Below are positions 2,729 to 6,976 of a DNA stretch of 64,000 nucleotides, piece by piece (position 1 is the stretch's first letter; each line of letters starts with the position of its first letter). The DNA is from an uncultured Actinomycetota bacterium (GTDB lineage Bacteria; Actinomycetota; Actinomycetes; Mycobacteriales; Mycobacteriaceae): assembly GCA_963698965.1 (NCBI GenBank), contig CAVOSY010000037.1, positions 55,141 through 119,140 of the forward strand, given 5' to 3'. The position numbers and the translations under genes are program-made. The notes below the pieces were generated by a model. It had not been told where the DNA came from, searched no databases, and saw nothing but the letters and a program-made list of their open reading frames with translations.

Positions 2729-3042
2729 TGCAGCGCGCCCGACCGATCGGTGACGATGACCTTCGCGTCCGCCGACAGCTCGTGCACCGCCGGCACGCCC
2801 TCGTCGTCAGCCGAGCCACCGACGAGCACCGCGGCCTCCAGACCGGTCGCACCGCTGGACACCGCGGCGGCGACCGCCGCCTGCAGCGCGGTCAGCTGCA
2901 ACGCATCGAGCTTGACGGGCGCGCCCGCGTAGGTGCGGCCGTCGAGGTCACGCACCGCCGCGCCGCTGGCCGCCTCGGCCCGGCCCATCGCACCACGCGC
3001 CAGCACCACCAACTTGGCGTCCTCGGCGTCCAGTTCAGTCAT
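2725..3042 (-). CDS. Cytidine-deaminase-fold small protein lacking catalytic residues (Rv2365c-like)
   Basis: ATG at 3042 ([18 protein letters not shown]..., 105 aa); [12 protein letters not shown] deaminase-like motif; position between hlyC-family gene and era. Confidence 0.8.
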
Positions 3043-4327
3043 TGCGCTCCCCCCGTCCGGGTTCCGACGGACTGACCAGGACCGTACCGATCCGGACACG
3101 GCCGCGGTGGTCGGGCCCGCCTTCGGCGCGCAGCCGCAGCCCATCCCACGTGACCTCGGCGCCGGGCAACGGGACGCGGCCCAATTCGAGGGCGACCAGC
3201 CCACCGACCGTGTCGACGTCGAGGTCCTCGTCGAACTCCATGTCGTACAGCTCGCCGAGATCCTCGATCGGCAGCCGGGCCGACACCCGAAAGTGCTTGT
3301 CGCCCAGGTCTTCCACCGGTGCGACCTCGTCGGTGTCGTACTCGTCGGCGATCTCGCCGACGATCTCCTCCAGCACATCCTCGATTGTGACCAGGCCCGC
3401 GATGGCTCCGTACTCGTCGACCAGCAGCGCCATGTGGTTGCGGTCCCGCTGCATCTCACCGAGCAGCGCGTCGAGCGGCTTTGAGTCCGGGACGAACACC
3501 GCCGGTCGCATCACGTCGACGACCTTGGTGTCGCGGCCACCGTTGGTCGAGTAGTAGGTCTTCTGCACAAGGTCTTTGAGGTAGACGACACCTACGACGT
3601 CGTCGACGTTCTCCCCGATGACCGGGATCCGCGAATGGCCGCTGCGCACCGCTAATGACGTCGCTTGACCGGCCGTTTTGTCGCTCTCGATCCACACCAT
3701 CTCGGTGCGCGGCACCATCACCTCGCGGGCCGCGGTGTCGCCGAGTTCGAACACCGACTGGATCATCCGACGCTCTTCGTCGGCCACCACACCGCGCTGC
3801 TGGGCCAGGTCGACGACCTCGCGCAACTCGATCTCGGAGGCGAACGGGCCGTTGCGGAACCCACGCCCCGGTGTCAGCGCGTTGCCGATCAACACCAGCA
3901 GCCGGCTGATCGGGGTGAGTAACACCGAAATGGTTTGCAGCGGAAGGGCTGCCACCAGCGCGATGGTGTAGGCATTCTGCCGGCCCACCGTGCGGGGGCC
4001 GACGCCGATGGCGACGAAGCTGACCACCACCATGATGGCGGCTGCCGCGACCAGTCCCCACCCCACACCGAGCAGGCCATCCAGATAGGCGACCAGCAGC
4101 ACCGTCGCGGTCACTTCGCAGGTGATCCGCAGCAGCACAACGAGATTGATGTATCGAGGCCGCTCGGCCATCAAACGGGCGAGCCGCACCGCGCCGGGCC
4201 GCTCGTCGCGCACCAGCTCCTCGACGCGGGCCACCGATACCGTGCTGATGGCGGCGTCGATCGCGGCGAACAACCCGCCAAGACCGATCAGCGCGATCGC
4301 GCCGATCAGCGGACCTATCCCGGTCAC
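3035..4327 (-). CDS. Hemolysin/CorC-HlyC family CNNM-CBS membrane protein
   Basis: GTG at 4327 overlapping ybeY stop; N-terminal TM segments, [20 protein letters not shown]...[16 protein letters not shown] motifs. Confidence 0.92.
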
Positions 4328-4860
4328 GGTTCGTCGAAGTATCGAGACTTGTCCAGCAGCCGCCGGTCCTTCTCGGACTGGCGGCCCTGGTGATAAGCCT
4401 CGACCTGGTCGGCCACCCACTCCTCGAGCAGTTGGCGTTGCAGCGCGAACATCTCCCTTTCCTCATCCGGCTCGGCGTGGTCGTAGCCCAGCAGGTGCAG
4501 AACGCCGTGCACGGTCAGTAGCGCGAGCTCCTGGCCCAGCGTTTGGCCGGCGTTGGCGGCCTGCTCGGCCGCGAACTCCGGACACAGCACGATGTCACCG
4601 AGCATCGACGGACCAGGTTCGGGGGCGTCCGGCCGGCCGCCCGGCTCGAGCTCGTCCATGGGGAAGCTCATCACGTCGGTCGGGCCGGGCAGATCCATCC
4701 AGCGCATATGCAGGTCGGCCATCGCCGCGGTATCGAGCAGCACCATCGAAAGCTCAGCCGCGGGATTCACCTTCATCTTGCGGATGACGAACCGCGCGAC
4801 GCTGATCAATTCCTCTTCGGAAACGTCGATGCCCGACTCGTTGGACACCTCGATGCTCAC
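4324..4860 (-). CDS. ybeY: rRNA maturation RNase YbeY
   Basis: PTDVMSF, LGDIVLC and [11 protein letters not shown] (H3xH5xH) metal motif. Confidence 0.97.
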
Positions 4861-4864
4861 ACGG

Positions 4865-6976
4865 TCACCTTCGCGGTCGGGCGCCCGACGCGCGGCGCTG
4901 GGCCCGGTTCATCAGCGCGGGCTCTTCGGATTTGGCGTAGGCGTCGACGATCTCGGAGACCAGCCGGTGCCGGACTACGTCGGCGCTGGTGAGTTCGGCG
5001 AAGTGGATGTCGTCGATGCCGTCGAGGATATGCATGGCCGCGCGCAGGCCGGACGTTGCTCCGCCGGGCAGATCCACCTGCGTGATGTCACCCGTGACAA
5101 CAACTTTCGACCCGAAGCCGAGCCGCGTGAGAAACATCTTCATCTGTTCGCCAGTGGTGTTCTGCGCCTCGTCCAGGATGATGAACGCGTCGTTAAGCGT
5201 GTTGTGGGTGAGCAGGAAGTCCTCGGTCACATATAGCGAGTCCTCGGCAGCGACCTGAATGCATACTGCTTCTTCGGTGCCTGCAGGCTCAATGCGGTGA
5301 ACGAAACGCATTGGCCGACCGCCGCCGGTGGCGTCGTATTTCGCTACCTTGCGGGCGAGTCGGAATGGGGCCACACCCTCCGGCAGACGGATATCGAGGA
5401 TGTGGGCGTCGGCGCGGTGGTGCACGTCTCGACCGCGTGCGAGTCCAGGCTTCCGTCCCTGTGCTGGCCTGGTTCGGGCGTACGCGACGCCGCCGAGTGA
5501 CTGCACCAGGAAGACGACGTGATCCCGCAGGCGATCGGAGACTGTCGTGAACTGAATGCGGCAGGTTCGTTCCTGTTGCGGTACCGGATCACCGTCGGAA
5601 TCGAATAGACCTTGGAGAACGGCAAGGCGCACATCGGGCGTATTGAACAGGTAGTCGTCCGGAACGAACTTGGTGTTCGACTTAGCACCGATTAGCCCCA
5701 GTCGGCGCATGGCGCCTGTGACTGGGTTCTCGATCGTGATGACCTCGCCGGGCGTGGTAATCCGATTCAGCACGTAGTCGATGTCGCTCTTCCGTCGGGG
5801 TTCGATGCCCGGAATGAGTCGTCCAAGGGCTTCAGCGAGCTCAGGATCGGCAGTGGTGAACCCCGGTGTGGCCGTGCATGAGAAGCATCCATCGCCAAGC
5901 AGGAGGCCAAGGGCGTACGGATCGAGCGGAACCGGTCGGGAGTCGAAATCAACCGGTGAACTCAGCAGCGGCAACTCATAGCGGTGCTGATGCGCCGCGC
6001 GGAGATTGCCGAGCATTTCCTTTGTCTGCAACACCCGTGCCGGCCTGCCACGACGCCGATCAGCGTGGGTGTAGACCGACCAGAGGTGGTCGCCGGACGC
6101 AAGCGTCGACGACCCATCCTGTGTATAAACCCGGTAGATCTCTTTGAAGCCCTGGGGATACACACCGAGGACTTCAGTCTCCCGTCCATCCGAGCCGATA
6201 ACGAAATCGCCGACCCGAAGATCACCAATCGGACGGAAACCCGCGGGCGTCAAAACCTTCGTAAACAACGGTTGCGCCCGACCCCGCATGAATGCCAATG
6301 GGGCAACCTCAATCACCCCGGCGCTCATCAGCTTTGGGATCAGCTCCGGATCCATCATGTCGTGCAGCGCGTCGTACAGCGGCCGCAGATACGGGTCGAT
6401 CTTCTCGTAGAGCGTGCCGGGCAGGAAGCCGAGGCGCTCACCGGCCTCCACCGCAGGACGCGTCAGGATGATCCTGCTGACCTGCTTGGTCTGTAATGCG
6501 TTGACCGCCTTGGCCATTGCCAGGTACGTCTTGCCGGTACCAGCGGGCCCGATGCCGAACACGATGGTGTGCGCGTCGATCGCGTCGACATATCGCTTCT
6601 GGTTCAGCGTCTTCGGTCGAATCGTCTTGCCGCGCCGCGACAGAATGTCGAGCGTCAGCACCTCGGCCGGCGACTCGTCGCCCGTGCCGGTCAGCATCGC
6701 GACGCTGTGCCGCACCGCGTCCGGCGTGAGCCGTTGGCCGCTGTCGACGATCGCCATGAGTTCGGAGATCACCCGCTCGGCCAGCGCGACGTCGGCAGGC
6801 TCGCCGGACAGGGTCAGCGCGTTGCCGCGCACGTGGATGTCGGCAGCGAGGATGCGCTCGAGTGCGCGCAAATTCTCGTCGGCGGAACCCAGCAGGCCCA
6901 CGACGAGGTCGGGCGGAACATTGATGCTGCTGCGAACGGGCGAGTCCGAGTCAGCGTTCGTCTCGCGGGGCGTCAC
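4865..6976 (-). CDS. phoH: PhoH family ATPase (PhoH1) interrupted by an in-frame intein; 703 aa precursor, about 344 aa after splicing
   Basis: GPAGTGKT Walker [18 protein letters not shown], and PLAFMRGR|[14 protein letters not shown] split by a 359-aa insert. Confidence 0.95.
5201..6277 (-). mobile_element. Intein (class-3 signature) with LAGLIDADG homing endonuclease, 359 aa
   Basis: Starts [11 protein letters not shown] (Ala1), ends LLTHN before Thr+1; block B ASGDHLW, block F AVCIQV, endonuclease motifs LGLLLGDG and LQGLFDSDG. Confidence 0.93.

Follow-up and report, generated by a model that had tools for sequence, protein, structure and literature searches.

A predicted class 3 intein with a LAGLIDADG homing endonuclease in the chromosomal phoH gene of an uncultured Mycobacteriaceae bacterium

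Introduction

What is the long insert in the phoH gene of an uncultured Mycobacteriaceae bacterium, and by which chemistry would it leave the protein? The question was raised by a stretch of 64,000 nucleotides (assembly GCA_963698965.1, contig CAVOSY010000037.1, positions 55,141 to 119,140 of the forward strand; called the window below), in which the ATPase core of the encoded PhoH protein is interrupted by 359 amino acids (aa). The analysis identified the insert with high confidence as a mobile, self-splicing class 3 intein with a LAGLIDADG homing endonuclease, located between MRGR and TLND of the chromosomal PhoH, and as an ordinary member of a known family. Class 3 inteins are recognised by a non-nucleophilic residue 1 which co-varies with Trp at position 12 of block B (B:12), Cys at position 4 of block F (F:4) and Thr at position 5 of block G (G:5), usually with Ser or Thr as the +1 residue (Tori et al. 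2010, PMC2807308). The positions of this Trp-Cys-Thr (WCT) triplet are restated in PMC5050341.

Methodology

The protein search with the intein gave 1,399 clusters at E <= 1e-3, and the conservation counts of homologues reported here refer to the best 120 of them. The per-residue counts vary between about 113 and 119, and the count for Ala1 has n = 104. The genome scan gave at least 121 species-representative genomes with the intein, and the counts of loci refer to 80 of these. The full intein and an endonuclease-deleted intein were both searched against the PDB, so the block assignment was not made by eye. The identities of the structures 6BS8, 6RIX/6RIY and 6RIZ were taken from PMC7664689 and from the Foldseek descriptions. 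The AlphaFold2 (AF2) model of the intein was built from an alignment of 56 sequences and the structural matching was performed by Foldseek.

Results and Discussion

Precursor and splice junctions

In mycobacteria the orthologue of the interrupted gene is the phoH1/ybeZ-type gene adjoining ybeY, and a gene of identical length, coding for 703 aa, is called in near-identical metagenome contigs. The match of the precursor to the PhoH profile (PF02562) is broken at residue 234. On removal of the insert in silico a single PhoH match was obtained, which covered profile positions 2-204 of 205 and rose in score from 298.9 to 321.7 bits. The resulting 344-aa spliced product aligned without any gap to the intein-free PhoH of C. 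glutamicum (PDB 3B85; E = 1e-109), the junction in this alignment being APLA(F or Y)MRGR^TLNDAF, where the caret marks the splice point. The boundaries of the intein are thus exact, as the PhoH domain is restored without a gap on excision. All the features are collected in Table 1.

The 359 codons of 5201-6277 on the minus strand contain no stop codon, and the insert ends in LLTHN followed by Thr. The N-extein holds a weak KH-like N-terminal region together with the first half of the PhoH ATPase core. The splice site is six residues upstream of the Walker B motif, and the intein therefore splits the ATPase core. The mature PhoH of 344 aa contains no Cys, and the four Cys of the precursor are all within the intein. 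The two exteins are conserved across species, with median identities of 94% and 86%, indicating that PhoH is under purifying selection.

Table 1. Coordinates of the PhoH precursor gene, its intein and their motifs (window positions; a caret marks a splice junction)
Feature	Position	Strand	Basis
PhoH precursor open reading frame (ORF), 703 aa with intein	4865..6976	-	ORF list; Pfam PF02562 PhoH E = 2e-89, split in two
N-extein, residues 1-233, ends ...APLAFMRGR	6278..6976	-	Pfam, excision, 3B85 alignment, translation
Walker A P-loop GPAGTGKT, in N-extein	6527..6550	-	translation; aligned to 3B85
Intein, 359 aa, precursor residues 234-592; Hint splicing domain split by LAGLIDADG domain	5201..6277	-	translation, exact excision, AF2 model
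N-terminal block with Ala1 (no N-terminal nucleophile)	6239..6277	-	Ala1 in 80 of 80 loci and 93 of 104 proteins
Block B with SGDHLW: His64 = B:10 (codon 6086-6088), Trp66 = B:12 (codon 6080-6082)	6074..6115	-	aligned to H-x-W of 6BS8, 6RIX, 6RIZ
Homing-endonuclease domain, about intein residues 101-316	5330..5977	-	Pfam LAGLIDADG_3, PI-SceI sequence match, fold match
LAGLIDADG motif 1, ALGLLLGDG, presumed catalytic Asp129	5888..5914	-	Asp invariant in homologue alignment
LAGLIDADG motif 2, LQGLFDSDG, presumed catalytic Asp228	5591..5617	-	Asp226 invariant, Asp228 at least 90% conserved
Block F with AVCIQV: Cys339 = F:4 (codon 5261-5263), predicted initiating nucleophile	5225..5272	-	
Block G, DFLLTHN^T: Thr357 = G:5, His358, Asn359, Thr593 = +1	5198..5221	-	
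C-extein, residues 593-703 and stop codon	4865..5200	-	excision, 3B85 alignment, translation
Walker B IILDEAQ, begins 6 residues past splice site	5162..5182	-	translation; alignment to 3B85
Insertion point in phoH DNA (intein-free target), junction ...TTGGCATTCATGCGGGGTCGG^ACGCTTAACGACGCGTTCATC...			

Class 3 signature

A preliminary description of this DNA, made from the letters alone, had named an Ala start, SGDHLW, AVCIQV and a Thr before the terminal HN as signs of a class 3 intein. Translation recovered all four at the places assigned to them, and each class 3 residue of Tori et al. (Ala1, Trp66, Cys339, Thr357 and a Thr at +1) was found in the insert, with the blocks in register with solved class 3 inteins. 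In the PDB search three stretches fell in line with 6BS8, 6RIX/6RIY and the engineered gp41-1_WCT (6RIZ): H-x-W in block B, xxCxxV in block F and the terminal THN. The aligned counterpart of Cys339 is the block F Cys in MchDnaB1 (6RIX) and the engineered Cys107 in gp41-1_WCT. The Thr position of the class 1 TxxH motif in block B is occupied by Ser61.

The signature is conserved throughout the family. Trp66 is present in all 119 homologues aligned there, block B being His64-Leu65-Trp66, and Cys339 in all 116. Thr357 and His358 are each invariant in 114 homologues, while Asn359 is retained in 113 of 114. The +1 Thr593 was found in 113 of 114 homologues and at all 80 genome loci, which also share the junction MRGR^A...HN^T. 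Such invariance or near-invariance in about 113-119 homologues, along with one junction in 80 loci, argues that the pattern is not due to chance. The reading frame through the intein is open at every one of the 80 loci, so splicing competence is required if PhoH is to function.

The structural prediction is in accordance with this assignment. The AF2 model is predicted to contain a Hint fold; Foldseek matched it to inteins of classes 1 and 3 as well as to the Hint domains of Hedgehog proteins, and its Hint part matches MchDnaB1, Msm DnaBi1 and gp41-1_WCT. In the search of the insert with profile hidden Markov models LAGLIDADG_3 scored above its cutoff, whereas the Hint signals were weak and the NCBIfam models gave sub-threshold similarity alone, to intein-containing DnaB, RecA and GyrA. 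Taken together, the aligned residues and the predicted fold support placement of the PhoH insert in class 3. A class 1 reading was ruled out by Ala1 in place of a Cys, Ser or Thr nucleophile and by the WCT triplet. A class 2 (KlbA-type) reading was ruled out by the presence of the triplet and by Thr, not Cys, at +1.

The first residue of the intein (window 6275-6277) varies to some extent in the family, being Ser in 9 and Cys in 2 of the 104 proteins, with the W/C/T triplet intact. Tori et al. 2010 (PMC2807308) mention WCT inteins that have a nucleophile at the N-terminus, and these members are similar to them.

Homing endonuclease and origin

The domain that splits the Hint domain matched LAGLIDADG_3 (PF14528) at 38.3 bits against the Pfam cutoff of 22.5 bits. 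In the PDB search its sequence matched the endonuclease region of PI-SceI, and its fold matched PI-SceI, TliVMA, PI-PfuI and I-DmoI. The AF2 model of the whole intein was of good quality (predicted local distance difference test, pLDDT, 87.4; predicted template modelling score, pTM, 0.89) and showed its best PDB matches to PI-SceI (template modelling score, TM, 0.69-0.70), TliVMA, PhoVMA and PI-PfuI. With both motifs present, the free intein probably acts as a homing endonuclease which cuts intein-free phoH alleles, and homing of this kind would account for the spread of the intein.

The base composition of the intein was compared with that of its host gene. The GC content at third codon positions (GC3) is 0.68 for the intein, 0.84-0.86 for the exteins and 0.82 (median) for the long ORFs in the window, and the overall GC content is 0.61 for the intein against 0.65-0.66 for the exteins. 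These lower values reveal that the intein DNA is not fully adapted to the host genome composition. The intein is also less conserved than its host protein, having a median identity of 0.79 against 0.94 and 0.86 for the two exteins, with the endonuclease lowest at 0.75. A foreign, mobile origin of the intein is supported by these data.

Full-length relatives with 35-41% identity were found in 864 phage records, for example in mycobacteriophage terminase and helicase. A link to phages has been proposed for class 3 inteins (PMC5050341), and the phage relatives of the PhoH intein fit this proposal. The closest of them is in gp2 of Mycobacterium phage Phrappuccino (583-3843), with 41% identity over the full length and insertion after ...QKSGK; two records differ on gp2, one calling it a terminase and the other a DarB-like antirestriction protein. 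Its intein has Ala1, H-E-W, Cys and THN^C, and the combination of Ala1 and W/C/T with Cys+1 is rare among class 3 inteins. Another WCT-type intein (GNHRW, AVCIKV, VTHN^T; 35% identity) is present in a 941-aa "PhoH" of the Caudovirales phage GX15bay (MK557849.1, 529-3351). This gene is just upstream of a portal gene, and its PhoH annotation looks doubtful. GX15bay was considered as an allelic source and rejected: its junction is ...IGGSLRLDQ... followed by THN^TNFIVV, not MRGR^TLND, and its extein does not resemble a P-loop protein of the PhoH type.

Distribution of the allele

The preliminary description regarded a class 3 intein in a mycobacterial PhoH as unusual. This view is not borne out by the literature or by the searches. 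Kelley et al. 2018 (Fig. 6a, PMC6195587) placed the PhoH inteins of M. fortuitum and M. xenopi in class 3 and showed their WCT triplet, Woods et al. 2020 (PMC7360933) reported that one of the four inteins of M. smegmatis is in PhoH, and Novikova et al. 2016 (PMC4760082) counted 21 PhoH inteins in Actinobacteria and Deinococcus-Thermus. The phrase "PhoH intein", searched as such in the literature, matched no papers. The best 120 of the 1,399 clusters are nearly all PhoH proteins or fragments with this intein, at 64-99% identity, and their named sources include Mycobacterium, Nonomuraea, Actinomadura, Kutzneria and Kibdelosporangium. The same intein was found at the same site in at least 121 species-representative genomes of Mycobacterium, Mycolicibacterium, Nocardia and Gordonia. 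The 80 loci include those of M. wolinskyi, kyorinense, peregrinum, porcinum, setense, rhodesiae, brisbanense, asiaticum, palustre, tusciae, simulans and vaccae, many Nocardia and Gordonia effusa. The same description had added that many well-characterised orthologues would lower the novelty; the orthologues are indeed many, though they have not been characterised by experiment. The window intein is an orthologue of the published mycobacterial PhoH intein, to which it was matched by description, and so is another copy of an already known, widespread allele.

The best match among the genome representatives was the metagenome-assembled genome Mycobacterium sp. BP_277, with 88% identity in the intein and 99% in the N-extein, and a JGI metagenome fragment was 99% identical to the window intein. 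The same locus is present in the ENA assemblies ERZ27252216, ERZ27256970 and ERZ27252015 (885-2996), where phoH differs from the window copy at 6-8 nucleotides. The intein, which makes up half of the gene, holds 5-6 of these differences, and the amino acid changes are all at non-catalytic intein positions. An exact look-up of the 703-aa precursor sequence found no record, and the neighbouring YbeY was matched in ENA metagenome contigs.

Comparison with characterised inteins

The nearest known systems are in the same host protein, namely the PhoH inteins of M. fortuitum (OBK00716), M. xenopi (EID13626) and M. smegmatis. Compared by description, the first two agree with the window intein in their class 3 assignment, in the WCT triplet and in a residue 1 that is not a nucleophile (PMC6195587). 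The same allele is found at MRGR^T, with 81% intein identity, in M. peregrinum, M. porcinum and M. setense, which belong to the M. fortuitum group.

Msm DnaBi1 (6BS8; zinc-bound 6OWN) and the M. chimaera DnaB1 intein (6RIX, 6RIY) share with it Ala1, H-x-W, the F:4 Cys, T-H-N and a hydroxyl residue at +1, and like it they are inserted in a P-loop ATPase; the Hint domains are about 25-33% identical. However, these two are mini-inteins of 139-145 aa without endonuclease, whereas the PhoH intein keeps a full LAGLIDADG domain. Their +1 residue is Ser instead of Thr, and the host protein and insertion site also differ.

The mycobacteriophage inteins share the architecture of the PhoH intein. Those of mycobacteriophage Bethlehem (MP-Be) DnaB, the class 3 prototype, of Phrappuccino gp2 and of the cluster C phage helicases combine Hint and LAGLIDADG domains in about 340-360 aa. 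They share the WCT triplet, Ala1 and insertion in an ATPase motif with the PhoH intein, and the MP-Be intein has Thr+1 as well (PMC2807308). They differ in exteins and sites, and in the Cys+1 of Phrappuccino gp2, while the PhoH intein is in a conserved chromosomal housekeeping locus. PI-SceI, the VMA1 intein, has the same two-domain fold and a LAGLIDADG endonuclease, yet it is a class 1 intein with Cys1 and Cys+1, does not carry the WCT triplet and is about 16% identical to the PhoH intein.

Splicing pathway and the strength of its assignment

A splicing pathway for the PhoH intein can be proposed by analogy with the inteins of MP-Be DnaB, Dra Snf2, Msm DnaBi1 and Mch DnaB1. The 703-aa precursor would be made with its P-loop fold interrupted and would presumably be inactive. 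The thiol of Cys339, aided by His64 and Trp66, would then attack the Arg233-Ala234 bond and form a thioester branch at block F, from which the N-extein would move to the hydroxyl of Thr593 as an ester branch at block G. Cyclisation of Asn359 would free the intein, and an O-to-N acyl shift would leave the 344-aa PhoH with the native sequence ...MRGRTLNDAF....

Some observations weigh against a fully active class 3 element. When the WCT triplet was grafted onto gp41-1, cleavage and not splicing was obtained (PMC7664689), and the signature is hence strong evidence for the mechanism, not proof. A 2026 paper states that splicing of PhoH inteins has not yet been studied (PMC13347336), which stands also against the regulatory proposal discussed below. 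The activity of the endonuclease is predicted from its motifs alone. A small number of orthologous inteins have only 314-340 aa, the mode being 359, and in 7 of the 80 loci one LAGLIDADG motif does not fit a simple pattern. The homing endonuclease can thus decay and seems to be doing so in some lineages.

Zinc and redox control

The preliminary description also held that thiol-dependent splicing could make PhoH output conditional on redox state or metals, which is plausible by analogy. As a physiological post-translational switch this would mean a domesticated intein, in which zinc or oxidants acting on Cys339 would reversibly hold PhoH as an inactive precursor and active PhoH, together with the PhoH-YbeY module, would be withheld under stress; such a switch is speculative and improbable. 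The analogy is provided by the class 3 intein Msm DnaBi1. Hydrogen peroxide (H2O2) inhibits this intein in the native host, and zinc, bound at the F:4 Cys, inhibits it reversibly (PMC6195587, PMC7360933). N-cleavage by MchDnaB1 is likewise inhibited by H2O2 (PMC7664689). The zinc ligands of DnaBi1, namely Cys118, the backbone of Val119 and Tyr128, are aligned with Cys339, Ile340 and Tyr349 of the PhoH intein. Tyr349 (codon 5231-5233, in block F) is present in 115 of 116 homologues, and the spacing from Cys to Tyr is 10 residues in both inteins. The residues of a DnaBi1-type zinc site are hence conserved, and the binding itself is putative. An unspliced precursor should moreover be inactive with the intein in the ATPase core.

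Against the switch, the disulfide partner of DnaBi1, Cys48, is aligned with Ile46. The remaining Cys of the intein (131, 134 and 239) are all in the endonuclease domain, the exteins have none, and block B of the Mycobacteriales PhoH inteins (TLASGDHLW) is also free of Cys. No intramolecular redox trap of the DnaBi1 type is therefore evident, and a DnaBi1-like disulfide in the window copy was rejected for lack of a partner Cys in the Hint domain or exteins. Judged from the aligned residues, conservation of the DnaBi1 machinery is partial: the Cys and Tyr of the zinc site are present and the disulfide partner is missing. By the same analogy the thiol of Cys339 is likely to be sensitive to zinc and oxidants in vitro. 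Such sensitivity to zinc and H2O2 in vitro is, however, common to all catalytic thiols, and inhibition of this kind would be no proof of regulation. The foreign GC3 is instead consistent with a selfish mobile element, as are the conservation of the endonuclease motifs and the relatives in phages. If the switch were true, the PhoH-YbeY RNA-processing module, located in the heat-shock neighbourhood of hrcA and dnaJ, would be coupled to stress in environmental mycobacteria.

Block B differs in the distant orthologues. Positions 6-7 of the block (intein 60-61, window 6095-6100) are Cys-Cys in 28, Cys-Ser in 15 and Ala-Cys in 7 of 121 homologous sequences. The Cys is frequent in orthologues of about 64-70% identity (P0033-P0120), whose named sources are actinobacteria outside the Mycobacteriales. 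The window copy and 79 of the 80 loci, mostly Mycobacteriales with TLASGDHLW, have Ala-Ser at positions 60-61, and one locus has Cys60. In the distant orthologues, a Cys beside the active site could serve as a built-in disulfide partner for the F:4 Cys.

Alternative fates of the insert

The class 3 pathway was further weighed against splicing by a different route, in which Thr593 attacks the N-terminal junction directly in the manner of class 2 and Cys339 serves the structure or assists without being the nucleophile. Direct attack of the +1 residue is indeed the way in which KlbA-type inteins with Ala1 splice (PMC2807308), and the gp41-1 graft described above revealed that the triplet is insufficient for class 3 splicing in an engineered scaffold. 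Class 2 inteins are without the WCT triplet and use Cys+1 (PMC2807308), whereas the PhoH intein has the full triplet and Thr+1 as a co-varying class 3 signature. The F:4 Cys was required in every natural WCT intein tested, that is MP-Be DnaB, Msm DnaBi1 and Mch DnaB1 (PMC6195587, PMC2807308, PMC7664689), and a branched intermediate at block F was detected in the Dra Snf2 intein, according to work cited in PMC6195587. The direct route is accordingly considered very unlikely. That the insert is a dead relic which no longer splices and leaves phoH effectively inactivated in its host has next to no likelihood and was rejected on conservation, as the catalytic residues are intact and invariant, the frame is open in the window copy as well as in the 80 related genomes, near-identical environmental strains show few substitutions, all of them non-catalytic, and the exteins are under purifying selection.

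Significance

With the class 3 intein retained as the preferred reading, the value of the locus as a discovery is small: class 3 inteins in mycobacterial PhoH were already published and the allele is common in Mycobacteriales. The family is of interest as a natural full-length class 3 intein, with the endonuclease kept, Thr at +1, a Cys-free extein and a single Cys in the splicing domain. Owing to the Cys-free extein and the single splicing-domain Cys it offers a clean system for the role of the F:4 Cys alone: is the intein sensitive to zinc and oxidants when there is no disulfide partner? A second question which it suits is whether splicing gates the activity of PhoH. For annotation, the 703-aa gene is to be described as an intein-containing PhoH with a mature product of 344 aa.

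Genomic neighbourhood

The gene order around the precursor is that of a conserved housekeeping locus, namely hrcA, dnaJ, rsmE, phoH, ybeY, a CNNM/CorC gene, a cytidine-deaminase-like gene and era. No tRNA genes, and no Rfam families at the gathering threshold, were found in the whole 64-kb window (1-64000), and no second intein was found among the long window ORFs sampled. These ORFs code for S9 peptidase, HrcA, HemN-like radical SAM protein, sulfite/nitrite reductase, class V aminotransferase, LepA, luciferase-like monooxygenase and a GatZ/KbaZ-like protein, all of which are ordinary housekeeping functions. The longest ORF of the CNNM/CBS/CorC gene (3035-4420, minus strand; 461 aa) overlaps the 3' end of ybeY (4324-4860, minus strand) by about 97 nucleotides. 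In near-identical contigs this gene is called as 430 aa with a 4-nucleotide overlap with ybeY, and its true start is therefore probably near 4327.

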